In this document: piece after piece, positions 1-18,838 of the stretch
How the letters are laid out: each line of letters opens with the position of its first letter
How positions within the stretch are numbered: position 1 is the stretch's first letter
The notes under the pieces: model-generated
The model's input: the letters and a program-made list of their open reading frames with translations, nothing else
What the model was told of the DNA's origin: nothing
Database searches by the model: none
Made by a program: the position numbers and the translations under genes
Sequence record: KT945995.1
Direction: 5' to 3' (one strand)
DNA: 18,838 nt
DNA from: Enterococcus phage vB_EfaP_IME199

Positions 1-68
1 AAATAGAGGTGAACCACCCGTCAACCACAACCCCCACCAAGGGTAACGAGATTTATAATTAAAATATA
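1..68. repeat. Left inverted terminal repeat (imperfect, about 68 bp) of a linear protein-primed genome
   Basis: Bases 1-68 match the reverse complement of 18771-18838 with about 7 mismatches. The first 21 nt are identical. The genome starts with a reiterated AAA, as expected for sliding-back initiation. Confidence 0.8.
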
Positions 69-102
69 ACTAAAATATCACATATTTCCAATGAATATAA
101 AC

Positions 103-132
103 TTGCACAATTTTATAATTATATGTTATACT
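103..132 (+). promoter_or_regulatory. Sigma-A-like promoter with extended -10 (TTGCAC, 18-nt spacer, TGT-TATACT)
   Basis: The -35-like TTGCAC is at 103-108. The extended -10 tgtTATACT is at 124-132. The -10 neighbourhood ATATGTTATA(C/A)T is shared with the two minus-strand early promoters. Confidence 0.45.
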
Positions 133-138
133 TATCTT

Positions 139-222
139 AGTAAGAGAGGCATTACACATAAAACCACTCATCGTTAGTGACTACCTAAAACTTGATTAGT
201 TTCTCTTACTTTTATATTTTTT
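139..222 (+). ncRNA. Candidate small structured RNA: closing helix around a three-way junction, followed by a U-tract
   Basis: Helix 139-149/200-210 (agtaagagagg / actcttactt) is 9 Watson-Crick pairs plus 2 G-U pairs. It encloses two hairpins, cact/agtg at 165-179 and ctaa/ttag at 185-199. The helix is followed by ttttatatttttt at 211-223 and lies just downstream of the 103-132 promoter. There is no ORF and no RBS in this region. Confidence 0.25.
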
Positions 223-238
223 AAGAATCAATGCCCTT

Positions 239-253
239 GACACTTTAAGTGTC
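239..253. promoter_or_regulatory. 15-bp dyad GACACtttaaGTGTC overlapping a TTGACA hexamer, upstream of the plus-strand structural operon
   Basis: A 5-bp inverted repeat is separated by 5 nt. TTGACA sits at 237-242, but no -10 hexamer follows at 16-19 bp spacing. Confidence 0.35.
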
Positions 254-320
254 CTGTCCTGAGCAATATCGCTGATGGCGTTGACGGTAAAAGGCTCAAT
301 TATTTTTAAGGAGGGATAAA

Positions 321-647
321 ATGGCAGATGAAGAAACAAACAAACTTGTGGATGAAGTTGAAGCTGAGGAAGTTAAAGAAGAAAAACCAAATGAAGAAGT
401 AACTGTTGATCCTGAACCTGTCTCAGATGAGGTTGCAAATCCACCATCAGAAGATGTTTCAGAAGTTCAATCGATTGACGAACTCTTTGCTTTAGTTAAA
501 CAACTACAAGCTCAAGTTGACGCTTTATCATCAATCAACACACAAGAAGAACCACAAGAACAGCCACAAGAACCACAAGAACCACAAGAACCACAAGAAC
601 CACAACAAGAAGACCCTGAAGAAATTGAAAAACTATTAGACTTATAA
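321..647 (+). CDS. Acidic, probably helical or disordered protein with a (PQE)n repeat; putative scaffolding or inner-core protein
   Basis: RBS aaggaggg is followed by ataaa and then ATG. It is the first gene of the structural arm and lies immediately before the capsid gene. The 108-aa product is very acidic. This position and size resemble phi29 gp7. Confidence 0.5.
   Translation: MADEETNKLVDEVEAEEVKEEKPNEEVTVDPEPVSDEVANPPSEDVSEVQSIDELFALVKQLQAQVDALSSINTQEEPQEQPQEPQEPQEPQEPQQEDPEEIEKLLDL
551..608 (+). repeat. Tandem 9-bp repeat (ccacaagaa, about 6.5 copies) inside the CDS, encoding PQEPQEPQEPQEPQ
   Basis: The direct repeat is visible in the sequence at 549-608. Confidence 0.85.
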
Positions 648-662
648 AAGGAGAGAAAACAA

Positions 663-827
663 ATGAATGAATTAGAACAAGAACATGAGTTGAAGTCTTT
701 TACTAAAGGTTCTCACTCAGATATTTATTTTGACAAAACACCACAATTAACGCCAGAAATGAGTATCGATCCATCAAGCGCTGACGAATACGAAAGCGAA
801 ATTAAAACATTAGGAGGACGAGGATAA
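663..827 (+). CDS. Small hypothetical protein (54 aa). It is not in the ORF track
   Basis: RBS aaaggagag is followed by aaacaa and then ATG at 663. The ORF reads MNELEQEHELKSFTKGSHSDIYFDKTPQLTPEMSIDPSSADEYESEIKTLGGRG and stops at 825-827, one base before the capsid ATG. It fills the gap between the scaffold and capsid genes exactly. Confidence 0.5.
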   Translation: MNELEQEHELKSFTKGSHSDIYFDKTPQLTPEMSIDPSSADEYESEIKTLGGRG

Positions 828-828
828 C

Positions 829-1998
829 ATGGGAGTATTAGGAACAAACATTGCAGAAGCTTTACAAGATTTTAACCACACACAAGGACGTAGCTGGACA
901 TTAGGAACTAACTGGACAAACGTTGACACAGAATTTGAAACGTTTATTAATAAGTTTTTATTCCCTAAACTAAATGAAACAGCTTTAATTCAATCAGCAC
1001 TAGGGAATACTTTTGAATGGTTAGCCAAAGAAGTTGACTTCGTAGGGCAATACTCAGAAGAGTATGTTATACGTGATACAATTCCAACAACGATGAATTT
1101 ATCAAAAGACGCTACTTTAATGCTACAACGTAACTATCCAAAAATGATTACTAAGCTTTATGGCCCGGGAGTTCTACGTAAAATGAAATTTACTTTGAAC
1201 AATAACGACCAACGTATGAACTTTTCTAAGTTATCAGACGGTGTTAAATACGCAATTGGTGTTTACAAAAAACGTATTTCAGATATTAACGTTGACGAAG
1301 AACGTCAAATCCGCGCAATGTTAGTTGATTATGCTGAGACGGTTACACCAGAAAAAGCACGACGCACAGCAACTTCAAAAGAAGATTTGTTTAACAAAAT
1401 TTCTACAGCTTTAATGAATCTACAAAACAACTCAGATAAATACAATGAAGCTCGCTTGGCTTCTGGCGGCGCAGTCGCTCGCTATACAACTGTTTCTAAG
1501 TTATCTAAACTAGCGATTTTAACGACTGACGAAATGAAATCTTACCTATTGAACACAAAACTAGCGAACACTTTCGCTTCTGAAGGTATTGACTTCTCCA
1601 AACGAATTATTTCATTTGAAGACTTAGGTGGTGCATATCGAGCAACAGCAGATATTACCTTATCAGCTGAAGCTGTTACAGCTTTTCGTGAGTTAGGCGA
1701 TTACCAAACAACAACCACTGACATCATTCCTAAAGGGTCTGTCGTTACCTTTGATGTAAACGAATTTCTACCAGTTGCGGACGCTGCTAAATTTGAAGAG
1801 ATCAAACCATCATCCGAACTATGGGCTTATGTGTTTGACTTAGACGCTATTAAGTATAATCGTTATACAAAAGGAATGCTAAAAGAACCTTTCTATAACC
1901 CAGAATTTGACGAAGTAACTCACTGGATTCACTATTATTCATTTAAAGCTATTTCACCTTTCTACAATAAGATTTTAATTACAGGTGCAGCAGAATAA
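829..1998 (+). CDS. Major capsid (head) protein
   Basis: It is 389 aa with a strong RBS. It lies immediately after the scaffold-like gene and before the portal. Size and position match the major head proteins of phi29, Cp-1 and P68-like phages. No motif-level proof is possible by eye. Confidence 0.6.
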   Translation: MGVLGTNIAEALQDFNHTQGRSWTLGTNWTNVDTEFETFINKFLFPKLNETALIQSALGNTFEWLAKEVDFVGQYSEEYVIRDTIPTTMNLSKDATLMLQRNYPKMITKLYGPGVLRKMKFTLNNNDQRMNFSKLSDGVKYAIGVYKKRISDINVDEERQIRAMLVDYAETVTPEKARRTATSKEDLFNKISTALMNLQNNSDKYNEARLASGGAVARYTTVSKLSKLAILTTDEMKSYLLNTKLANTFASEGIDFSKRIISFEDLGGAYRATADITLSAEAVTAFRELGDYQTTTTDIIPKGSVVTFDVNEFLPVADAAKFEEIKPSSELWAYVFDLDAIKYNRYTKGMLKEPFYNPEFDEVTHWIHYYSFKAISPFYNKILITGAAE

Positions 1999-2016
1999 AC
2001 TACAGGAGGTATCTAA

Positions 2017-3042
2017 ATGTTCGAGCCTATGAATTTAGGCATAGAACAAGAACTAAGCGAAAAAATAGATGTGCGGGTTGTAAATCATAGAAATAGATTT
2101 GCCCGCATTTTCTATTCTCGTTATCTTGAACTATTGCCAACAACAATTAAATATTATAACGGTTATAAATACCCAGAACTGCAAGTTGACTGGCTAAAAG
2201 TGGAAGTTATGCTTAGAAGTAATTACGATGTTATTATAGGTGAAACACTTCAAGGTAATATTCGTATATTAGGCGTCGCCAAACAAAGAATGACCCCATC
2301 TGACCCAGCAAACATTTTAATCACAAAACCATTAAAAGGGAAGGATATTTATTGGACAATTCCTAAAGACCAACGGTTACCACGAATGAAAGAAATTACG
2401 GATATTGACGGTGCACAATCAGGTAACTTCATTGTTCTTAGAAATAAAGTTTTTGCTTATAATAGTGATTACGAAATTATTCAACACTATACAAACGAAT
2501 TAGCTGAAATTGTTCTTTCACGTTACTCTTTAAAAATGCAAGCTAAAATCAGTACATTCTTAATAGGAGAACCAAATGACCAAACAGTAAATAATATTGC
2601 AGAAAGTCTTTACAACGGTTCACCTATTACTAAAGTTACAGGATTCTTTGACCCTGACGAACACATTAAAGAGTGGAACAACTCAAATGTCGGTGGGATG
2701 TTAGCAGAGTTAAAAAGAGAGTATCAAAACACGTTGAACGAGTTAAATGCTATTTTAGGATTTAGTTCTTTAGGCGTTGATAAAGAAAGTGGAGTAACTG
2801 AAACAGAAAGCAATTCTGGTAAAGCTTATACAACAGCTAATGGTAATATCTATTTAACAGCTAGAAATAACGCTTGTAAACTATTAAATAAACGTTATGG
2901 TTTTGAAATTCATCCATTATTTGATGATAATGCTATTTCGACATTAACTGTAATGACTGAAGGAGGGTCAAGTGATGGGGGCAACGACAGTCTCATTAAT
3001 GCAAATATTGCGAGCCAACTTAATAAAGAAGGGGAAGAATGA
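2017..3042 (+). CDS. Portal / upper collar (connector) protein
   Basis: RBS is acaggagg. The 341-aa product has an N-terminal region, RIFYSRYLELLPTTIKYYNGYKYPEL, that resembles the phi29 gp10 connector helix pattern. It sits next to the capsid gene. Confidence 0.6.
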   Translation: MFEPMNLGIEQELSEKIDVRVVNHRNRFARIFYSRYLELLPTTIKYYNGYKYPELQVDWLKVEVMLRSNYDVIIGETLQGNIRILGVAKQRMTPSDPANILITKPLKGKDIYWTIPKDQRLPRMKEITDIDGAQSGNFIVLRNKVFAYNSDYEIIQHYTNELAEIVLSRYSLKMQAKISTFLIGEPNDQTVNNIAESLYNGSPITKVTGFFDPDEHIKEWNNSNVGGMLAELKREYQNTLNELNAILGFSSLGVDKESGVTETESNSGKAYTTANGNIYLTARNNACKLLNKRYGFEIHPLFDDNAISTLTVMTEGGSSDGGNDSLINANIASQLNKEGEE

Positions 3043-3652
3043 GTTTTTTAACGAAAACAAATATACCGGAAACAGCAAACAGCACCGTTTCATTCAAAAA
3101 GCTTTAAGATTTGATGAAGATGTAGAACAAATAATAACTGAGGAAGTCTTTGCTGATTATCATTTCCCAACTAAAGAAGTGGATCATTTTTTCAAAAAAG
3201 CTTTTACAAACCGTTTCTTAAATAGAGAGATAGGTAGGCAAACAATTGAAGATTTTTCTTCTCAAGTGGTGTTTTGCTCTATCATTCACGAACAGGAAAT
3301 TGAAGCTATTTACCATAATTTTTTAAGTGCTTTATCTAATGAAAATAAATCTAAAGGAATAAGCGAACACGTAAGCGAACACCAATCAACTAGCGAAGGA
3401 AGTGACCGTTCAGCAAACACTACTTTACCTCAAGATCAAGTGAATTTGAATTTAGATAAGCATGATATGGCTTTTGCTGATGATAACTCTATAAGCAAAA
3501 ACAACAATCAATCGAATAGTAATGGAAAAGATACAACGAATACAGAGAACTCAGCAACCAACTACAACGCTGACACTTTCAAAAAAATGCAAGGTTTATG
3601 GAATAGCTACTTTGATGAATACGACAGAAAATGTTTCTTACAAACATGGTAA
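2972..3652 (+). CDS. Virion structural protein with a polar low-complexity C-terminal tail; possibly lower collar or inner core
   Basis: Strong RBS gaaggaggg is followed by tcaagtg and then ATG at 2972. The start overlaps the portal gene by 71 nt in the +1 frame. The C-terminus is rich in Asn, Ser and Thr. Confidence 0.7.
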   Translation: MMGATTVSLMQILRANLIKKGKNEFFNENKYTGNSKQHRFIQKALRFDEDVEQIITEEVFADYHFPTKEVDHFFKKAFTNRFLNREIGRQTIEDFSSQVVFCSIIHEQEIEAIYHNFLSALSNENKSKGISEHVSEHQSTSEGSDRSANTTLPQDQVNLNLDKHDMAFADDNSISKNNNQSNSNGKDTTNTENSATNYNADTFKKMQGLWNSYFDEYDRKCFLQTW

Positions 3653-3666
3653 AGGAGAATAAAAAT

Positions 3667-5091
3667 ATGTATTTAAATCGGTTTGGTAACCCCAACTACA
3701 ATATTAAACAAGATTTTACAACAAATGCTGAAAGCTACTTAGAGTATTTAGGTGCTTTAAATGAACAGTTAGATTCAGCAATGAAGTTGATTGCGCGATT
3801 AATCAACAGAGACGTGGAGGTGGAAGATACTAATACGGTAGATTTAACTAAGATAGGTGATTTCATTGATAACATTGACCCTAGCTTAGAGTTAGAGGAA
3901 GTCATTAAAATTAAAGCTGATGTGATTATTTCAGCAGCTACAGAGGACGGACAGTTAAATAGTTTGTTACCAAAACCTTTAGTTATGGAACTTCAAAATG
4001 CTGTAAAAGCTAAAGAAGACGGGCTGTTTGTAAAAGACCTTTATGCTTTAATCTATAAATTAGACGAACATGTTAACACATTAATTAATCGAGTAGATGA
4101 GATAAATGTTGATGGTTCTACTGTTATGATTGGCGGATTTGACCAATATGACAAAACTTTAACTCTACAAACAAATCAACAACAAGTAAAGGCTGGACTA
4201 GTAAAAAATGACCCTAATATTACTAACTTAACCTTGGTAACAGATATTCACTTACGGACAGATTATAACGGTTTTAGTTCAAAACAGTATTTTAACTCCA
4301 TTTCAAACATTCAAGATGTTGCTAGGGAAACAGATACAGTTGTTTACATGGGCGATAATATTGACGGTTTAAGTGCTCAAATAACTGACAAATCAGGGAT
4401 GATTGATCCGGCTAAAATTAAATATGCCAATGAAATGGCTTATCGTAAAGTTATGAACGCTTTGGTTTTGAATGAGCCAGTTGATACGATTGCTATGATA
4501 GGTAATCACGATGTGGGTGGAATGCCTTACATGTGGGAACCAGAACATGCGGGAATGATGATCCCTGACAAAACTCTAGCAGACATCGCGGGGAATGCTC
4601 CTTATGGCGTTCACAAAATCCCTAATAAACAAATAGCGATTGTCTACTTAAATACAACTGAAATCACTTGGGAAGAATCAAACACATTTACTAGCGGTGT
4701 ATCTACTCTTCAATTAAGTTGGTTAAGAACACAGTTAAACCTTCTAGAAGAAAATTATCATGTGCTAGTTTTGGGTCATCATAACTTACATGGGGTAAAC
4801 ATGAAGAACGGACAAGAATTAATTGATATTCTAGCAGAATTCGAAGCAAAATCTACCTCTAAGTTTGTTGGTTACTTCCATGGACATCAACACATGGACA
4901 AAGTTTATAACAAGGGTGAATTAGTCGCTTTTAATTCCATCAGTTTATGTCAAGCTTTTCCCGGAAGTGTATCACAAGCAAACACAAATAATCAAGTGGG
5001 ATTCTATGTTGTTACTGTAGATATTTCCAAACGTCAAGCAACTTTAAAACCTATTGGACATGCTACACTAACGAACATCATTTCATACTAG
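3667..5091 (+). CDS. Structural-module protein with a C-terminal calcineurin-like metallophosphoesterase domain
   Basis: The start is taken at ATG 3667 (RBS aaaggagaa, then taaaaat, then ATG) in preference to 3631. The phosphoesterase motifs appear in order: DIH (TDIHL), GDxxD (YMGDNIDG), GNHD (IGNHDVGG), GHH (VLGHHNLHG) and GHxH (FHGHQHMD). About 190 aa at the N-terminus have no obvious motif. Confidence 0.8.
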   Translation: MYLNRFGNPNYNIKQDFTTNAESYLEYLGALNEQLDSAMKLIARLINRDVEVEDTNTVDLTKIGDFIDNIDPSLELEEVIKIKADVIISAATEDGQLNSLLPKPLVMELQNAVKAKEDGLFVKDLYALIYKLDEHVNTLINRVDEINVDGSTVMIGGFDQYDKTLTLQTNQQQVKAGLVKNDPNITNLTLVTDIHLRTDYNGFSSKQYFNSISNIQDVARETDTVVYMGDNIDGLSAQITDKSGMIDPAKIKYANEMAYRKVMNALVLNEPVDTIAMIGNHDVGGMPYMWEPEHAGMMIPDKTLADIAGNAPYGVHKIPNKQIAIVYLNTTEITWEESNTFTSGVSTLQLSWLRTQLNLLEENYHVLVLGHHNLHGVNMKNGQELIDILAEFEAKSTSKFVGYFHGHQHMDKVYNKGELVAFNSISLCQAFPGSVSQANTNNQVGFYVVTVDISKRQATLKPIGHATLTNIISY

Positions 5092-5101
5092 GAGGAAAAA
5101 C

Positions 5102-5896
5102 ATGAATACAAAAGAAGAAATTCTAAAATTAAAAGAAGCTGTTAATAAATTAGCCAAGGAGTTCGGTATGCACAGTGACGGTGATGGGGTCAATCCACAC
5201 CAATTAGCTACAGAAATTTCAAATGGTTTAATGTCAGCTGACACTTACAGACAAGCAAGAGGATACGCTCATAAGGATAATTATTTAAATGAGAAATATG
5301 ATTTTTGGAGAATCCCCCCGGGAATTTACGCTACTGTTTACGCTTGGGCTGATTTAATTCCTACACCTGACGACGCTGTTCCCGGTGATTTAATCACTTT
5401 AAAAGTATTCGGTGAAGATAATCGCCGAAAAACGTATATCATGATTATCCAAAAAACAGGTTCTATTTACTACCTAAACACTTCTCAAAACCAAGGAGAA
5501 GGAGGTGGGAACACAAACTCCCTATTCTGGAAACGAATCCCACAAGAAACAATCCTTTGGAATGCTGGAACATCAGACGCTACCGTAGGTCAAAACATGA
5601 ACTTAGCTGTATCAACTAGACGTTTCAGACGTTTGAGATTTCATTTTCATGGTTTAGGTGGTTCTCAATTCTGTGTCGATGTTCCTTCAGCTGATAACCC
5701 TATTGTTTCATTTTCAACAACAGCTAGTTCAGCTAATGAAGCTTATATTATCCGAATGAACTTAGTAAACCAAAGAGACAACGTTGTTTTACGTTATGAT
5801 AAATTACGTGTCACAACCTTGAGACCTGACGGAACGATTACAATTGATGATAACGATAGAGGTTTTACTATTTTCGCTATTGAAGGAGTGTATTAA
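5102..5896 (+). CDS. Hypothetical virion protein (beta-rich); possibly tail fibre or appendage component
   Basis: RBS is aggagg followed by aaaaac and then ATG. The gene lies inside the tail-gene block. Confidence 0.7.
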   Translation: MNTKEEILKLKEAVNKLAKEFGMHSDGDGVNPHQLATEISNGLMSADTYRQARGYAHKDNYLNEKYDFWRIPPGIYATVYAWADLIPTPDDAVPGDLITLKVFGEDNRRKTYIMIIQKTGSIYYLNTSQNQGEGGGNTNSLFWKRIPQETILWNAGTSDATVGQNMNLAVSTRRFRRLRFHFHGLGGSQFCVDVPSADNPIVSFSTTASSANEAYIIRMNLVNQRDNVVLRYDKLRVTTLRPDGTITIDDNDRGFTIFAIEGVY

Positions 5897-7288
5897 ATGG
5901 AAGATTTTGTACGAAAAACAAGAGGGGTTAGAGACATCATGTCTCTACCTCTTGATACTAGTCATGAATTAGATATTGTGTCAGATGTAAAAGGAAAAAT
6001 CTATATCAAGATTTTAAACCGTTACAAGGAACTACTTTTTGATAACGGGACAGAACAATGGGTTATTGATATGTTAAATAACTTAGAAGTTTACGTGGAA
6101 CAATTAAAAGAGGATGTCCTTGATTTAGAACAAGCGTTAACAGAACTACCAATTATAGAGGATAAATTGGAAGCTGTAGAAACAAAGCTAGCTCAAATCA
6201 ATACTTTATTCGCTCAAATGCAGATTGATGTTCAAGGGTTAGACCTTAGAACAGCTGAATTAGAAAGAGAAGTTATTCAATTAGCTCTTAAAGATCAAGA
6301 GTTATTAGATAAAATTAATAACTTAAACCTAAGAAAAATATCAATCCTTTATTCTAATAGCGTCGATTTTGGGGATGACCCTAAAATTCATAATTTACTC
6401 GATTCACCCTATTATTTGAGTAAATTGCCTTTAGGTGAGAATATTCTTAAACCAGTTTCTTTTCCAATTAATACTACAGAATATATGGCAGCTAGTTTTA
6501 TTCCTAATGAACCATTCGTACAGGGGCAAAAGTATACTTTTACAATGAAGGCGATAAAACCAGCTACTCAAACGTTTGGTATTTATTTACGTGCCGGATC
6601 GTTAAGCGCTGGGAACATGACCCCGGTAGAAGGATTGACTGATGTTTGGCAACTCACATTTGAAATAACACAAGCACATATTGATGGCGGTGCTAATGCA
6701 TTGAATGTATTTCAAGCACCACAATCAACAAAAGGAACAGTAAATATTGAATGGGCAAAACTAGAAAAAGGTGACACACGAACTCCGAATATTCCCTACC
6801 ACAAGTATGTGGGTATCAACCTAAAAGAGTCAGAAAACCCTAAGGATTACGAATGGATCCCTCTAGCAAGTGCCGCGGAAACAGTAGATGCTAGATTATC
6901 AAAAATCATTTCAACATATGACACCGTTAACTCTCTACAAAATAACCGTTTAACAGCTTTAGAAAGTAAGGTGGTAGATACGACTTGGCAAAATGTATCA
7001 GTTACAGCACCTTTTACAAGTGTGACACAACCACAAGTTAAAAAACAAAATGGCATTGTTTATATGAGAGGTACAATAAGTAACGGAACAGGAGATTGCT
7101 TTAACTTACCTGAAGGTTTTAGACCTCCTGCAGGCTCTTACGAGATGCAATTCAGACTACCTTGCCGTTCCGCTTCAGCGGCAGACTATGCGACGATGTA
7201 CGTTAGACCAAGTGGTTTATGTTCAATAGCTGGGGTAAACGGAACAATGCCTATTTTCTTATCTGGCATCATCTTTAGTACAACTTAA
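5897..7288 (+). CDS. Tail fibre or appendage-like protein with an N-terminal coiled coil
   Basis: RBS is gaaggag. A heptad-like segment, LEQALTELPIIEDKLEAVETKLAQINTLFAQMQIDVQGLDLRTAELEREVIQLALKDQELL, is followed by beta-rich sequence. This is typical of receptor-binding fibres. Confidence 0.55.
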   Translation: MEDFVRKTRGVRDIMSLPLDTSHELDIVSDVKGKIYIKILNRYKELLFDNGTEQWVIDMLNNLEVYVEQLKEDVLDLEQALTELPIIEDKLEAVETKLAQINTLFAQMQIDVQGLDLRTAELEREVIQLALKDQELLDKINNLNLRKISILYSNSVDFGDDPKIHNLLDSPYYLSKLPLGENILKPVSFPINTTEYMAASFIPNEPFVQGQKYTFTMKAIKPATQTFGIYLRAGSLSAGNMTPVEGLTDVWQLTFEITQAHIDGGANALNVFQAPQSTKGTVNIEWAKLEKGDTRTPNIPYHKYVGINLKESENPKDYEWIPLASAAETVDARLSKIISTYDTVNSLQNNRLTALESKVVDTTWQNVSVTAPFTSVTQPQVKKQNGIVYMRGTISNGTGDCFNLPEGFRPPAGSYEMQFRLPCRSASAADYATMYVRPSGLCSIAGVNGTMPIFLSGIIFSTT

Positions 7289-7299
7289 GGAGGAAAATC

Positions 7300-9051
7300 A
7301 TGAAGTTAAGTAAAGTAACGTTATACTACAATACACCGATGGTAGATTTTAACAATACGGTTCATTATGATAACACAACCCAATATAAAAATTGGTTAGA
7401 TAATACATTTGCTAAAAAGGAATTTGAAAAAGATTTTAACCTTGTTCGTGACCGTTTAACCATCAACGCCCCTATTCCGTACGCTGAGACGGAGGGGGTA
7501 AACTATGGTTGTTTTATTGACGGATTCACAGAAAAACCTCACTTTTTTTATGTCATGACGACCCAATATGTCAATGATCAAGTAACTTCTTTACAAATCG
7601 TTATTGATGTGATGGCTAGTTTTACACAAGGGACAGTTTTAGAAAATATACCTAATGTAACCATTCAAAGGCAACATTTACCAAGAGCTGAATACAATAA
7701 TCGCCTACAAGAGTTAAGAACAAATAGTGACATCTTAAAAACAACGACGAAGAAATATGTTCATTCTAAATCAGTTATTTGGAAAGAGTTGATGTGTGTC
7801 TTTCAGTGTAGTGTTGACTTAGAAGCAGAATTTGGAACGGAAAATAAACCTAAGATTAAACTCTCCAAAGGGGTGAAATATGATAAAATTGTCTCTCCTG
7901 TTGGTTTATATGCGATTGACTTAGATGATTTTAAAAACTTTTCCAATGATTTAAGTGATTTCCCTTGGATCGGTCAAAACATTAAATCAGTCATTTTAAT
8001 TCCTAAATCATTTATTGATACACAAGATTTATCATCTGCTAAATTTAATGGAAAAACGCATGATCATTTGAAAAAATTTGTTAATGGAGGGAATTCACAG
8101 AATCAATTAGTATCAGGGTTTTCTTGGACACCAGAACAAATTTTAGGTTATTTAGGTTTTCCCACAGACGAAAAACATTTATTAAGAAATGAATATGCCA
8201 CTCTTGAAGTCTATAATTGGACAGGTCAAAACATGGATTTAGATTTAGGTTTTTTACCTGAAACAGGTCTAAATTTCCAAATGGTTACGAGCATAGGGTA
8301 TGCCAATCAAATCTCTATTTTTCCCGTCAATTGGATGGCTAGTGGGGATAAAGATGAAGGACAGGTAGCTAAAGGTACGTTCTTAAACAATAGTTTAACA
8401 TATAACAACTGGACGGAAGTTCCTGTTTTAACTGATAACTATAAGTTAGGTTTAGCTAACAATGCAAACAGAAGAGCTTACGCGGAATCTCAATTATTAA
8501 CAGGACGAGTAAAAAATATCAAAAACACACTTGCCGATGATTCAATGAATTTTGTGGAAAAAGCAACAAATGTCTTCACAGATGCTTATGCCTTACTTGG
8601 TGGAGGGTTAAATCCTCTAACTATAGGTTCTAAGATTGCAGATGAACAGAACTTTTATCGCCAACAGAAAGCCGAGTTTGCTGATATGGCACTTACCTCA
8701 CCTTCTTTATCTAATCAATCAGGGGGAGAAGCGTTCTCCATAGCCAACGATTTGATGGGTTTTACTGTTAAACTGAGCGCTCCAAGCCATGCAGAAGTCA
8801 ATAAAATAAGACGTTACTATAAAACATTTGGCTATGCTTTTGAAGAACAAGGGAAAGTGCAATCACTACACTCCATGACCGTTGTCAATTACCTTCAAAT
8901 GGATGGAGTTTATACTATACCAAATATAGCTCCACAATTTATGCAACAAATCAAAGCATTATTACAGATAGGTGTTAAATTTTGGCATAATCCTAATAAT
9001 GTGAAAAACCCTTTTTCTCAAGATGTTCTTGAAAATAAAATTAGAATTTAA
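7300..9051 (+). CDS. Tail knob / distal tail tube protein (phi29 gp9-like)
   Basis: RBS is taaggagg. The N-terminal pattern YYNTPMVDFNNTVHYDNTTQYKNWLDNTF matches the gp9-family signature (NT..F...S..QYNWF). The size is 583 aa. It is the last structural gene before holin-lysin. Confidence 0.55.
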   Translation: MKLSKVTLYYNTPMVDFNNTVHYDNTTQYKNWLDNTFAKKEFEKDFNLVRDRLTINAPIPYAETEGVNYGCFIDGFTEKPHFFYVMTTQYVNDQVTSLQIVIDVMASFTQGTVLENIPNVTIQRQHLPRAEYNNRLQELRTNSDILKTTTKKYVHSKSVIWKELMCVFQCSVDLEAEFGTENKPKIKLSKGVKYDKIVSPVGLYAIDLDDFKNFSNDLSDFPWIGQNIKSVILIPKSFIDTQDLSSAKFNGKTHDHLKKFVNGGNSQNQLVSGFSWTPEQILGYLGFPTDEKHLLRNEYATLEVYNWTGQNMDLDLGFLPETGLNFQMVTSIGYANQISIFPVNWMASGDKDEGQVAKGTFLNNSLTYNNWTEVPVLTDNYKLGLANNANRRAYAESQLLTGRVKNIKNTLADDSMNFVEKATNVFTDAYALLGGGLNPLTIGSKIADEQNFYRQQKAEFADMALTSPSLSNQSGGEAFSIANDLMGFTVKLSAPSHAEVNKIRRYYKTFGYAFEEQGKVQSLHSMTVVNYLQMDGVYTIPNIAPQFMQQIKALLQIGVKFWHNPNNVKNPFSQDVLENKIRI

Positions 9052-9095
9052 TGAGAGTATATGTTATAATAGAAGCTATGAAGGGAGGTGATTCA

Positions 9096-9317
9096 ATGGA
9101 TCAATTTATCGAAAATTTATTAACAAATCCTAACGAGATTAGTTTTGCTGTATTGTTTTTTGGTTTATTTGTATGGGTAATGAAAACGAATAACGGACGT
9201 GAATTAAGATACCAAGAGACAATTCAAAAGTTAACAGATGCATTAGGAGATGTAGAGATCATTAAAACAATGATTGAAAATATCAGTGACAAATTTATTA
9301 AGGAGGAAAAAGAATGA
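9096..9317 (+). CDS. Holin, BhlA/UviB family (single N-terminal TM)
   Basis: The start is taken at ATG 9096 (RBS gggaggtga, then ttca, then ATG) in preference to 9051. FAVLFFGLFVWVMKTNNGRELRYQETIQKLTD matches the BhlA/UviB holin-like signature (FAVLF..LLFYVMK...RE). The gene lies immediately upstream of the lysin. Confidence 0.7.
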   Translation: MDQFIENLLTNPNEISFAVLFFGLFVWVMKTNNGRELRYQETIQKLTDALGDVEIIKTMIENISDKFIKEEKE

Positions 9318-10228
9318 TTACAAAAGGAATTGCTGGACGTAGACAAGGAAAAGTAAAAGGTGTTGTGATTCATAATGATGCTGGTTCAAATGGAGCAACT
9401 TGCTCTTTTTATAGAGGGTATTTAACTGATGCGAATGCCGCCTATGGTTTTGCACATTGGTATGTCGCTTCGGACGGTATTTTACAAGTGGAAGATGAAT
9501 CAAATATGGCATGGCATACAGCAAATAGCTATGGGAATGCCAATTTTATTGGGATTGAAGCTTGTCAGTCGATGGGGAACTTAGCTCAATTTTTAGAAAA
9601 TGAGAAACGGGCGATTAAATTAGCAGCTGAAATTTTAAAACGTCATGGTTTAACCCCAAATACAACGACTGTACGATTGCACAATACTTTTAGCTCAACC
9701 GCTTGTCCTCACCGCTCACAAGAGCAGCATGGGGCTGGTAGTAAAACACAAGCTTATTTTATTGCTGAAATAAAAAAACACATGAATGGGTCAACTCCCG
9801 CTCCTTCTAAACCAACAACGCCAAGTCAACATGATAAAGCAGTATCTGCAAGTCCAGCAAAACATCAAGGCAATGCATGGGGTAAACTTGATAAGTATCG
9901 TGAAGAGCCTGCTGGGAAAATTCGTGTGGCTGGTTGGTTAGTTCCTGATAAACCACAAGGCCCAATTGGAAAATATGCGTACGTCATCTTTATGCAACAT
10001 GGAACAAACAAAGAGTTGACACGTGTTCAATCTGCTGGCATTAAACGCCCAGACGTGAAGAAAGCATACAGCTATCAAGGTGGGCAAGAGCTTGGGTTTG
10101 ATGTAACTGTTAAGAAAGCTCAGTTCAAAGGTAAAAAAGTAGATGTTATCTTGCGTAGAGCGAATAAAGCTAATGGTGAAGTCGCAGTAAATGATGTTCG
10201 TATCGATTCTATCTATTTAACACTATAA
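9314..10228 (+). CDS. Endolysin: N-acetylmuramoyl-L-alanine amidase (amidase_2/PGRP) with a C-terminal wall-binding region
   Basis: RBS is taaggagg followed by aaaaaga and then ATG. GVVIHNDAGS...AHWYVASDGILQVEDESNMAWHTANSYGNANFIGIEACQ is a classic amidase_2 catalytic region. The ATGA start overlaps the holin stop. Confidence 0.85.
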   Translation: MITKGIAGRRQGKVKGVVIHNDAGSNGATCSFYRGYLTDANAAYGFAHWYVASDGILQVEDESNMAWHTANSYGNANFIGIEACQSMGNLAQFLENEKRAIKLAAEILKRHGLTPNTTTVRLHNTFSSTACPHRSQEQHGAGSKTQAYFIAEIKKHMNGSTPAPSKPTTPSQHDKAVSASPAKHQGNAWGKLDKYREEPAGKIRVAGWLVPDKPQGPIGKYAYVIFMQHGTNKELTRVQSAGIKRPDVKKAYSYQGGQELGFDVTVKKAQFKGKKVDVILRRANKANGEVAVNDVRIDSIYLTL

Positions 10229-10266
10229 AAGAAAAAAGGCTCGCCTATGGCGAGTCTCTTTTTTCG
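10227..10266. terminator. Bidirectional rho-independent terminator at the convergence point of the two arms
   Basis: An A-tract (aaaagaaaaaa) precedes the stem ggctcgcc / ggcgagtc. The stem is 8 bp with one G-U pair and a tat loop. A T-tract (tcttttttcgtttctttt) follows. The hairpin is flanked by A-runs and T-runs, so it reads as a terminator on both strands. Confidence 0.75.
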
Positions 10267-12297: not shown

Positions 12298-12852
12298 TTA
12301 CACTCCCTTATATTCTTCTGATAAACGTCCCTTTACTGTAAAATACAACCCTTTATAAGGTAATTGAAACATAAAAGAACGTTTTATTTGTGCGGTGTAA
12401 TATCCTTCATCAATTGCCTCTCTAAAGGATTTGAACTCTTTTACTAAATTACCGTCAATATCTCTGGCTTCAATAGGGAAACCTTGAGAGTATTGTGTAT
12501 TCTCTTTTGGTGTCATCCATTCTAAATTAAGACGATAGTTGTTCGATTTTATCTCGTCTTTATGATTCACTTGAGTTTTGTTCTCAGGGTTAGGAATGAA
12601 GTTGTTTGCCACAAGACGGTGGATATAATGATAGGTTCGTTCCCCTTCATCATAAAATTGAACCTCCAGATAGCCGTTCGATTTACGTAATTTAGGTTTT
12701 AACAGTCTTTTTGTTTTCTTATTCCTTACATCACCCAGCTCGCTTACTTCGTAGTTATCATTTTCTTTACATGTAAGCCAAACAAGGGGTTTTGTATTCA
12801 TGTAATTTGTTTCTGTGTTCAAAGCATTTTTTAAGTTATCTTTTACTGTCAT
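12298..12852 (-). mobile_element. Free-standing HNH homing endonuclease (NUMOD4-like N-terminus plus HNH_3, I-HmuI-like)
   Basis: YEVSELGDVRNKKTKRLLKP...NGYLEVQF is the NUMOD4/YEVSN pattern. HYIHRLVANNFIPNPENKTQVNHKDEIKSNNYRLNLEWMTPKEN is the HNH core (H..H.LVA...NH.D..K.NN...NLEW.T..EN). RBS is tggagaaaatta followed by ATG. The start overlaps the upstream HTH gene by 17 nt. Confidence 0.85.
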
Positions 12853-15913: not shown

Positions 15914-15942
15914 ATTATAACATATATGTTAGAAGCCAGCAA
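15914..15942 (-). promoter_or_regulatory. Polymerase promoter: TTGCTG, 17-nt spacer, TGT-TATAAT. It contains the palindrome ACATATATGT
   Basis: The minus strand reads TTGCTGgcttctaacatatatgtTATAATgg. The -35 overlaps the last codons of the ATPase gene. The 18-nt module is identical to the one at 13517-13534. Confidence 0.6.
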
Positions 15943-17167
15943 ACTTTTTCTGTAGATTTTTAAGTGTGTTTTCCATGTACATATCTTTATATACTTTATC
16001 AACACGTTCACTGTGATTCTCTATATTCGCTGTTGCGTGTTTAGAAACACATTTCCATATTTTTAATTCTACCAGAGTGGTATCTCTTGTTAACAATGAT
16101 TTTGTATAAGCATTGTCATAATAATAGTATCCTCTCTCGTGACGTTTCAAATGAGTTTCATTATAATAATTTTCATTTAAATAAGTAACCCCATCTTTCT
16201 TATCAACAACTTGAGTACAGAAATCATAATCAGAAGAACTAAGAACATAGGATAATAAAGTTTTCTTTGTATTTAGATTGTAGGTAGCTTTTAGAAACCC
16301 TTCTTCTAACTTAATAAAAAAGTAATTAAACCCGCCAACTTTAATGCTTTCCCTAATATCATCATTAGCAATATAAGTATTATTAATTACAAATTCCCCG
16401 CTTATAGAAGCTGTATCCGCATGTTTGAAGGCTCTAAGGTTACGTTTAGCGTTCTGGTTGTCATTTCTAAACATTTCCAAATAAATATTATCGTAGTGTT
16501 TACCTGTATTAATAGGGTGTTTCTCCAACTTATTATATAAATCTAACATAGCTATTAGAGGACTAGCGAAGTTCTCTGGATTGCCTAAAAGAAATACTTT
16601 GGGAACTCCTATTAGAGGAATGTTGTCGTTACGGTCAACTGAACGATAGATACGCTCAAAATGCTTCTCTTCTAAAGGAACGTAATCTGTTTCAATTGTT
16701 AAAAATTCATCATAAATCATAATAGGGAACTTAGCTAAGAAATGAGAATGGTTTTTTAAGTCAGAACTGTTGTTAATATCTGTTATTGCTCCGATTGTTT
16801 TGTCTTTGTAAATAACTTCCACGTATTCATCACTTCGTTCGAAAGCTAGTTCTTTTTCATCAAAGTGTGGCATAACATGCATAATCTCCCATATGTTTTC
16901 CATATAAGCTTGTCTAACAGTATAGTGACGGTCTAAGAACAATAAACCTAAATCGAACTCCCAAGCGACAGCCATTAGCATGCCCATATAGTTAAATGAC
17001 TTACCGTCTGTACGTGAAGAAATGGATACAGTGTAATCATTATCTTGATTAATTAAGTTTTCTACCCCTTTAGCTTGGTTAAAGTTAGAGGGGATGTTTT
17101 CTTTCCTGAATTTCTCTATAAATTTTAAAAATCTTTCTTCTTCTGTTGGTTTTTTAAATAGTGCCAT
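15929..17167 (-). CDS. DNA packaging (encapsidation) ATPase, phi29 gp16-like
   Basis: Walker A is the gp16-style sequence SISSRTDGKSF (R..GKS[FY]; phi29 has GARGIGKSY). Walker B is FPIMIYDEFL (phi29 has TIVFDEFI). RBS is aaggagg. The product is 412 aa. Confidence 0.7.
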   Translation of the reverse strand: MALFKKPTEEERFLKFIEKFRKENIPSNFNQAKGVENLINQDNDYTVSISSRTDGKSFNYMGMLMAVAWEFDLGLLFLDRHYTVRQAYMENIWEIMHVMPHFDEKELAFERSDEYVEVIYKDKTIGAITDINNSSDLKNHSHFLAKFPIMIYDEFLTIETDYVPLEEKHFERIYRSVDRNDNIPLIGVPKVFLLGNPENFASPLIAMLDLYNKLEKHPINTGKHYDNIYLEMFRNDNQNAKRNLRAFKHADTASISGEFVINNTYIANDDIRESIKVGGFNYFFIKLEEGFLKATYNLNTKKTLLSYVLSSSDYDFCTQVVDKKDGVTYLNENYYNETHLKRHERGYYYYDNAYTKSLLTRDTTLVELKIWKCVSKHATANIENHSERVDKVYKDMYMENTLKNLQKKFAGF

Positions 17168-18555: not shown

Positions 18556-18693
18556 TTACTTCCAATATTTTAGTTCAAATTCAAATGCTATCTTTTTCCA
18601 ATAATCTGCTGTTTCCTTCCAATAGGTTAGTTCAGCTTTTAGTTCTTCTATGGTTTTTTGTTGTCTGGCAATAATTGTATTATATGGATTCAT
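18556..18693 (-). CDS. Small hypothetical protein (45 aa, MNPYNTIIARQQKTIEELKAELTYWKETADYWKKIAFEFELKYWK). It is the first gene of the leftward arm and is not in the ORF track
   Basis: It has a very strong RBS (aaggaggg, then atcat, then ATG). It lies between the right-end AT-rich promoter region and the SSB promoter. Confidence 0.5.
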   Translation of the reverse strand: MNPYNTIIARQQKTIEELKAELTYWKETADYWKKIAFEFELKYWK

Positions 18694-18760: not shown

Positions 18761-18770
18761 AGTATTTCAT

Positions 18771-18838
18771 TAGATTTTAATTAGAAATCTCGTTACCTTG
18801 GGTGGGGGTTATGGTTAACGGGTGGTTCACCTCTATTT
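18771..18838. repeat. Right inverted terminal repeat
   Basis: Its reverse complement aligns to bases 1-68 (aaatagaggtgaaccacccgt...). The window ends exactly at the repeat, which is consistent with a complete linear genome. Confidence 0.8.

Follow-up and report, generated by a model that had tools for sequence, protein, structure and literature searches.

The subject of this study is a small structured RNA element encoded near the genome's left end in Enterococcus phage vB_EfaP_IME199 (sequence record KT945995.1), all 18,838 base pairs (bp) of which were analysed and are referred to below as the window. Over 89-94% of its length the window shares approximately 87% identity with phiSHEF14, Ump, Zip and phiEFM08-14, and its sequence identifies it as an Enterococcus faecium podophage genome of the genus Minhovirus (Rountreeviridae, Sarlesvirinae). 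Since inverted terminal repeats (ITRs) of 74 nucleotides (nt) occupy positions 1-74 and 18765-18838, their arms being 89% complementary, the window represents a complete linear genome. Its + strand genes (321-10228) form a structural and lysis block, which encodes an acidic protein of 108 amino acids (aa), the major head protein, the upper collar connector, tail proteins, a holin-like protein and the endolysin. The minus-strand genes (18693-10292) include those for SSB, a packaging ATPase of the phi29 type, a DNA polymerase and an HNH endonuclease. These two convergent operons meet at a bidirectional terminator (10237-10257), the sole strong terminator of the genome; the terminator-like sites on the + strand within 321-10228 are all weak. 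An earlier interpretation, made from the nucleotides alone (hereafter, the sequence-only reading), had noticed a small structured RNA downstream of a promoter in the left end. This RNA, which is upheld at 139-210, had been likened to the prohead RNA (pRNA) of phage phi29 and, as a fallback, to a leader of the late operon; it is the fallback that the evidence assembled here favours.

The left-end 320 bp had been described as free of open reading frames (ORFs) and, indeed, positions 1-320 hold nothing credible, only ORFs of 23-47 aa that lack ribosome-binding sites. The extended -10 promoter proposed at 103-132 was likewise recovered by a promoter scan (match at 104-132). It is a putative sigma-A-type promoter of the structural, rightward operon on the + strand, with TTGCAC as its -35 (103-108) and TGtTATACT as its extended -10 (124-132), the spacing from TTGCAC to TATACT being 18 nt and the upstream TG being present. 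This promoter is conserved in all relatives: neither its -35 nor its -10 columns vary among six Minhovirus-type leaders, and its counterpart in Copernicusvirus reads TTGACA...TGATAAACT. On the + strand of window positions 1-700, the scan gave no second promoter-like site. One candidate in 211-320, a TTGACA at 237-242, was rejected, since it is not followed by an acceptable -10 at a spacing of 16-18 nt and is replaced by TAGACA in phiSHEF14. Nor does a second promoter fit between the outer helix of the element (P1) and the first gene of those relatives in which the gap is only 10-19 nt: the distance from the 3' arm of P1 to the Shine-Dalgarno (SD) sequence AAGGAGGG is 10 nt in Zip and Ump, and that to AGAGGAG, the SD sequence of the true start ATGGCAGAA, is 19 nt in Copernicusvirus. 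As the only promoter-like site upstream of the structural genes precedes the element, transcription of the operon must read through it, and the element is therefore the 5' part of the operon mRNA. There is one copy of it, invariably placed between the promoter and the first gene of the operon. From the -10 hexamer to the first base of P1 there are 5-8 nt in the window, Zip, Ump and deletion-type Copernicusvirus, the transcription start itself being predicted.

In the window, the 5' arm of P1, AGUAAGAGAGGC (139-150), starts 6-7 nt downstream of the -10 hexamer, where transcription is predicted to begin, and pairs with the 3' arm GUUUCUCUUACU (199-210); both arms are supported by RNAfold, by covariation and, for the nine outer pairs, by RNAalifold. 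The closing helix that had been proposed at 139-149/200-210 is thus found, and RNAfold lengthens it to 12 bp (139-150/199-210), two G·U pairs included. Within P1, an A-rich strand of the internal loop, AUUACACAUAAAAC (151-164), carries AC and AA dinucleotides that are invariant across genera (columns 19, 20, 23 and 24). The hairpin P2 follows at 165-179, its stem CACU/AGUG enclosing the loop CAUCGUU; this is the first hairpin of the sequence-only reading, present as 4 bp (165-168/176-179) with a 7-nt loop, kept in relatives, and supported by covariation and RNAalifold. The other strand of the internal loop, ACUACCUAAAACUUGAUUA (180-198), contains an invariant ACUA (180-183) and a conserved GAUwA (194-198). 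Directly after P1 stands a U-rich run, UUUUAUAUUUUUU (211-223). All of these features are on the + strand.

The folding z-score of the element is -1.7 to -2.0, and 79 of 1000 dinucleotide shuffles of 75-320 contain, within 100 nt, a continuous helix of 12 bp or more when G·U pairs are counted. Judged from the window alone, the helices are not beyond chance, and the case therefore rests on comparison with relatives. The left ends compared were those of phiSHEF14, Zip and Ump, of IMG/VR contigs found by their capsid protein, of GenBank Copernicusvirus phages, and of two further contigs. One, the metagenome contig L050, was the only relative among eight loci returned by a metagenome scan with the back-translated start MADEETNK. 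The other, L065, is a contaminating contig in a metagenome-assembled genome; it was the one Copernicusvirus-type contig that a capsid-protein scan of genome contigs added, together with a 386-bp fragment. The phiEFM08-14 records are trimmed to the first and last coding sequence, so no left end is included in them.

A plain MAFFT alignment (A2) placed gaps inside P1 and broke its register, and was replaced by alignment A3, in which 19 distinct Minhovirus and Copernicusvirus sequences are held in an N-padded hand register, and by a model-based alignment (A4). In A3, 98.1% of the cells are standard pairs, and 12 of the 16 pairs of P1 and P2 have changed on both sides, which bears out the compensatory changes that the sequence-only reading had suggested looking for in related genomes. 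P1 contributes 12 pairs (97% paired, eight doubly changed) and P2 contributes four, every one of them with changes on both sides and 100% paired. Not one of 500 shuffles reached the observed values, and pairing fell to 36-52% when the partners were slid by 1-3 columns. On A4, RNAalifold predicted the nine outer pairs of P1 and the four pairs of P2, with nothing further of note, and P1 was predicted in nine of nine single-sequence folds. The substitutions involved are extensive. Where the window has AGUAAGAGAGGC/GUUUCUCUUACU as P1, Zip has AGCCAUCGAG/CUCGUUGGCU and the E. faecalis phages of Copernicusvirus have AGUCAGGGG/CCCUUGACU; the P2 stems are CACU/AGUG, CGUU/AACG and GUGA/UCAC, respectively. 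Though the stem differs in each lineage, the P2 loop retains the pattern C..(Y)G.U, which is C..YGUU in Minhovirus-type leaders. The plan common to these latter leaders runs from the promoter through the 5' arm of P1, a 14-nt A-rich strand, P2, ACUA and 15-17 bases leading to GAUwA, to the 3' arm of P1.

A covariance model built from the six Minhovirus-type sequences only, and run with filters off, returned the Copernicusvirus element as the top match in all 11 of 11 loci (E 1.7e-5 to 0.18), and the elements of the two genera are therefore homologous and not merely analogous. Contig L065, previously unseen, scored 64 bits with the full model. The element was found in every Minhovirus and Copernicusvirus left end examined; the more distant capsid relatives L018-L046 gave no match to the element model. 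L022, L024 and L025, three relatives whose left ends are laid out alike and whose capsid identity is 62-63%, have a 10-nt leader, in which the promoter passes straight to the SD sequence. The covariation shows that P1 and P2 are real and that selection acts on them in the + strand.

The strand on which the helices are read also bears on whether the conserved entity is RNA at all. In principle, the element could act as DNA, either as a replication or packaging signal folding in the displaced + strand or as an operator for a DNA-binding regulator. Its proximity to the genome end, in a region displaced first when the left origin fires during protein-primed replication, would suit such a role, and a protein might bind the conserved unpaired motifs in the DNA. 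Against this stand the 19 G·U cells of A3 on the + strand, which become C·A mismatches if read on the other strand; the fold therefore belongs to the transcribed + strand, and compensatory changes with frequent G·U (G·T) on one strand only indicate RNA. Operators, moreover, keep their sequence rather than their pairing, the element is always downstream of the operon promoter and in the same sense, and the right end is without a comparable element. We consider a DNA-level function very improbable.

The resemblance to pRNA that had been proposed depended on a second hairpin (185-199), which together with the first would create a three-way junction with two loops. This hairpin is A·U-rich and only 4 bp long, and a helix of at least 4 bp is obtained in 31-45% of shuffles of the same segment; in Copernicusvirus the best equivalent is 2 bp or less, and RNAalifold does not predict the hairpin. 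Being at chance level and absent from Copernicusvirus, it leaves the three-way-junction topology unsupported, and the conserved parts are P1, P2 and, between them, a large asymmetric internal loop. In phi29-type pRNA, a closing A-helix and helices ending in the CE and D loops form a three-way junction, and the functional core measures approximately 117-120 nt (PMC4201828, PMC11476376). The element, by comparison, is 66-74 nt long and has two conserved helices only. Kissing complementarity between two pRNA loops drives ring formation (PMC4201828). When the P2 loop was matched with the other unpaired segments of the element, the best contiguous complementarity was 2-5 nt, mostly with G·U; that of the window and Zip was equalled by 36-38% of shuffles, and three of four Copernicusvirus representatives had 2 nt. 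Self-complementarity of the P2 loop was 2 nt in nine of ten representatives, the tenth, L008, having 6 nt with G·U.

Database models gave the same answer. The pRNA family RF00044 (118 positions), to which the sequence-only reading had looked for confirmation, matched nothing in the window when the gathering score was applied, nothing on 1-340 at E<=10, and nothing in four relatives; the pRNA of phi29 itself (201-318, minus strand) was recovered at 145.4 bits against a gathering score of 100. Rfam as a whole returned nothing relevant on the left end, its matches being a chance-level freshwater-2 hit on 238-323 (E 9.7) and a snoRNA fragment. The position in the genome agrees with that of pRNA only in the distance from the genome end. 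In phi29 the pRNA gene adjoins the early replication genes and is read outward, the annotation placing promoter A1 at 328-356 and pRNA at 201-318, both on the minus strand, whereas the element is read inward from the only promoter of the structural operon and is not an independent outward-facing unit. The element is very unlikely to be a pRNA, as it lacks every testable mark of membership.

A broader version of the proposal would have the element act in trans, as a small RNA freed from the leader by termination or processing, and this would include a minimal pRNA-like bridge between portal and ATPase. Several observations could be read in this way: the 5' and 3' ends are paired, as in the A-helix of pRNA, the loop bases are conserved, the element occurs in both genera throughout and lies 140-300 nt from the genome end, and the genome encodes a connector and an ATPase of the phi29 type, the latter having been pointed out already by the sequence-only reading and confirmed here as the gene at 15929-17167 (minus strand, PHROG 2150). 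These points are outweighed by the failure of RF00044, the small size and two-helix architecture, the chance-level second hairpin and kissing complementarity, obligatory read-through in place of an independent transcription unit, and the 10-nt leaders of the relatives at 62-63% capsid identity, which give no model match. The connector, too, is an indirect hint against such a role. The basic RKR N-terminus of the phi29 connector binds pRNA; the connector of the window is nearest to the portals of the staphylococcal phages Andhra (8EGR) and P68 (6IAC), and its N-terminus, MFEPMNLGIEQELSEK, is acidic and without RKR. A PDB sequence search with the packaging ATPase gave no match. Precedent also argues against it, in that the lactococcal phi29-like phage asccphi28 lacks a pRNA, its ATPase assembling into rings by itself (PMC7823558), and reviews view pRNA as restricted to Bacillus phi29-like phages (PMC11476376). 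A trans-acting RNA is accordingly improbable, and its most specific form, in which the 66-74 nt domain is cut or terminated from the leader and serves as a minimal packaging-motor RNA of Enterococcus Sarlesvirinae, is still more so. Were it true, it would be highly interesting, for a second kind of 'pRNA', far smaller than that of the Bacillus phi29 group and not related to it, would then exist beyond that group.

Between genera, unpaired columns have an identity of 46-68%, compared with 23-42% for paired columns, and 13 of the 18 invariant columns are unpaired, among them columns 44-47, 61 and 64 in the 3' strand of the internal loop. This conservation implies a specific partner for the unpaired bases, possibly a protein, the ribosome or a ligand. 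The motifs were also considered for translation signals, and a leader peptide or displaced SD sequence in Copernicusvirus (AAGAGGUGA in the internal loop, together with an AUG that L008 and L013 have in their P2 loops) was rejected: the AUG is not conserved, and the first gene really starts at a downstream ATGGCA with its own SD sequence.

Loop bases more conserved than stems are also what an aptamer would display, and the element might, in consequence, be an attenuator or riboswitch-like device, in which P1 and the U-rich tract stop transcription before the structural genes. Here an early phage protein, a host factor or a small ligand would bind the loop bases, alter P1 and thereby time the late genes. 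A timing device of this sort, acting after initiation, is plausible given that the promoter looks constitutive for host RNA polymerase, and in the window, phiSHEF14, Zip, Ump and Copernicusvirus the 3' arm of P1 does lead immediately into a U- or AU-rich tract. The U-run at 211-223 that had been read as the end of the fold is, however, only partly borne out: the T-run is present in the window, but it is shared with phiSHEF14 alone and is not a conserved terminator, for L006 and L050 have no U-tract after P1, and the U-rich bases of Zip, Ump and Copernicusvirus are the usual AU-rich stretch before an SD sequence and not independent evidence. P1 closes a domain of approximately 50 nt, so that the element does not have the G+C-rich short-loop hairpin and conserved U-tract of an intrinsic terminator, and a terminator scan of 1-700 was negative. 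No conserved alternative (antiterminator) pairing was seen, and no Rfam riboswitch matched even at E<=10. We regard attenuation as unlikely, though deserving of more weight than the alternatives considered above.

The remaining clues concern the 5' end of the transcript and the rest of the leader. In the window, phiSHEF14, L006 and L050, further helices lie between the element and the SD sequence; Zip and Ump do without them, so that the element abuts the SD sequence. An extra hairpin, GACACU-UUA-AGUGUC (239-253, + strand), is found only in the window, phiSHEF14 and L004. Another helix, UGAGC (260-264)/GCUCA (294-298), also on the + strand, stands directly before the AU-rich stretch and SD sequence, and has as counterparts UGAGCA/UGCUCA in L006 and UGAACA/UGUUCA in L050, a compensatory change from G-C to A-U. 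The AU-rich stretch, the SD sequence AAGGAGGG (308-315) and the start codon (321-323) together occupy 299-323 (+ strand) and open the acidic 108-aa first gene.

A helix at the 5' terminus is a recurrent theme in these genomes, appearing as the core element, as an optional Copernicusvirus module, as the P1 of deletion-type Copernicusvirus and as a hairpin at the predicted +1 position of an early promoter of the window (18510-18494). Those Copernicusvirus genomes that have an extra upstream module obtain from it the helix at +1; in those without the module, the P1 of the core grows to 12 bp and itself begins at +1. The module comprises 49-54 nt at the predicted +1 position and is a true three-way junction (L007, 122-175), composed of UAGUGAGU / UAGGG-loop-CCCUA / ACUGC-GGA-GCGGU / ACUCACUA. 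It occurs also in L008, L009, L012, L013, L017, L058-L060 and L065, and is 98% paired, with three pairs changed on both sides. At least eight phages isolated from plaques (Ef7.2-7.4, KEN01/12, EFP6, A149 and N13) lack the module, which is therefore dispensable; its loss looks like a deletion between ATAGT repeats. The first 75 positions of L012 (an IMG/VR record of phage Efmus4) begin with a reverse-complement copy of the module, which is probably an assembly artefact at the genome end.

The explanation that we prefer, and which we hold to be somewhat better than evenly likely, is that 139-210 is the 5'-proximal leader domain of the structural-operon mRNA, acting in cis and not constituting a separate gene. 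Its function would probably be protection of the mRNA or binding of a factor. P1, a helix of 9-12 bp, would join the extreme 5' terminus of the transcript to bases approximately 60 nt downstream, and would enclose the large A-rich internal loop and the short hairpin P2. In Firmicutes, a 5'-terminal structure or 5'-proximal ribosome binding protects mRNA from decay dependent on RppH and RNase J. By sequestering the 5' terminus, P1 may shield the 10-kb operon mRNA from 5'-end-dependent decay through these enzymes. The conserved motifs ACA..AA, C..YG.U of the P2 loop, ACUA and GAUwA, positioned by P1 and P2, could then form a recognition surface for a phage or host factor, which might tune the stability, read-through or translation of the operon mRNA. 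We infer the transcription start, the stabilising effect and the binding partner alike.

Several considerations weigh against this explanation. The thermodynamic signal is weak, with z-scores of -1.4 to -3.9 across single-sequence folds, and the helix of the window is matched by 8% of shuffles. The pair counts of alignment A3 are inflated by its manual fitting to the structure, and its 19 sequences represent only some five to six independent lineages; A-richness increases chance identity in the loop columns. The transcription start of the operon is a prediction only. Conserved loop bases are more than a simple stabilising hairpin would require, and in Copernicusvirus with the extra module the core lies approximately 55 nt from the 5' end, yet is still conserved, so that protection of the 5' end is not the whole function. 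These last two points together, the conservation of loop bases and the retention of the core when it is not 5'-terminal, mean that the element does more than cap a 5' end.

Other features of the genome were recorded in the course of the analysis. The space between ITR and promoter varies among relatives: L006 has, at positions 50-200, three tandem repeats of approximately 47 bp, and L022 and L024 carry at least six ATGATTCA iterons at approximately 100-190. A protein of replication, or one that binds genome ends, may recognise these repeats and iterons. At the other end, an ORF of 45 aa, MNPYNTIIARQQKTIEELKAELTYWKETADYWKKIAFEFELKYWK, adjoins the right ITR (18556-18693, minus strand), with the strong SD sequence AAGGAGGG and its own promoter, TGcTATAAT; it is shorter than the 50-aa cut-off used in listing ORFs. 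The early promoter upstream of the SSB operon (18546-18494, minus strand) has TTGACA and TGtTAAACT separated by 17 nt, and at its predicted +1 position a perfect 6-bp hairpin, AGGUUA-AGGAA-UAACCU (18510-18494). The first protein of the structural operon is strongly acidic and ends, within window positions 540-600, in a tandem PQE repeat, QEPQEPQEPQEPQ, for which the coding DNA is itself a perfect 9-nt repeat. No PHROG matches this protein, which could be scaffold-like. Approximately 700 bp downstream of the DNA polymerase gene, an HNH homing-endonuclease ORF (12298-12852, minus strand) in the leftward replication block is likely to be a mobile insertion. Part of a tail gene and the endolysin region (approximately 9800-10237), both within 6392-10237, share 82-88% DNA identity with E. 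faecium siphophages, including IME-EFm5, IME-EFm1 and the KEN series, which indicates that modules for host range and lysis have been exchanged across unrelated phage families.

The element is absent from Rfam 15, and no mention of it was found in the searchable literature. It belongs to a familiar class, the structured and conserved 5' leaders of highly expressed phage operons, in which conservation of loops is unusual. That such an RNA resides in Enterococcus podophages that are therapeutic candidates (Minhovirus and Copernicusvirus) lends it some practical interest. It marks a likely site of control after initiation for all of the structural and lysis genes, and is thus relevant to the engineering of 18-kb phages and to late-gene timing in genomes without an obvious switch of the phi29 p4 type. 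Its small size is suited to mutagenesis and pull-downs, and loops that are more conserved than stems suggest a specific partner. The negative outcome for pRNA is also useful, since it renders very unlikely the most obvious candidate in this phage group and agrees with the confinement of pRNA to Bacillus phi29-like phages.

Among known systems, the pRNA of phi29 is that to which the element was originally compared. Both are structured phage RNAs within a few hundred bases of a genome end, with their 5' and 3' ends joined in a closing helix, and both belong to protein-primed genomes that encode an ATPase of the phi29 type and a connector. The element differs in being half the size, in matching neither the sequence nor the structure of pRNA, and in having no conserved junction or kissing loops; it is transcribed inward as the leader of a structural operon, whereas pRNA is transcribed outward from its own A1 promoter beside the early genes. 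Another parallel is the putative pRNA of Cp-1 (Martin et al. 1996, as cited in PMC6266182), where likewise a pRNA-like molecule was proposed close to a genome end, in a phi29-like phage whose Gram-positive host is not a Bacillus, but that candidate went undetected by the pRNA covariance model of the citing paper (PMC6266182). Cp-1 gave no Rfam pRNA match and no match to our element model R1 and, by its annotation, the Cp-1 candidate would be read outward from promoters inside a 236-bp ITR.

Leader RNAs that act on transcription form another comparison. HK022 putL and putR are phage leader RNAs that act on the transcribing polymerase, and the BglG/SacY systems, with RNA targets of the RAT (ribonucleic antiterminator) type, are protein-dependent attenuators. 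Akin to these, the element is promoter-proximal, approximately 70 nt long, located in the leader of a long phage operon and endowed with conserved loop bases. The put RNAs, however, are two adjacent stem-loops without a closing helix, which the element possesses, and no alternative pairing of terminator and antiterminator was seen in it. A put-like antiterminator would also have little to suppress, because the only strong terminator (10237-10257) is at the end of the operon.

A further comparison, for the preferred explanation of a cis-acting leader domain, is with 5'-terminal stem-loop stabilisers, such as the leader hairpin of T7 gene 10, the aprE and ermC leaders of B. subtilis and the 5' untranslated region of E. 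coli ompA. These are simple hairpins whose sequence is unimportant, and they are found on highly expressed, long phage or secretory mRNAs. As in these cases, the helix of the element is at or near the predicted +1 position, its placement is independent of the distance to the SD sequence, and a second transcript of the window, that of the early promoter, likewise has a hairpin at its predicted start. In contrast to them, its helix of 9-12 bp closes a domain of approximately 50 nt in which the unpaired bases are more conserved than the stems, and this domain is conserved even where it is not 5'-terminal.

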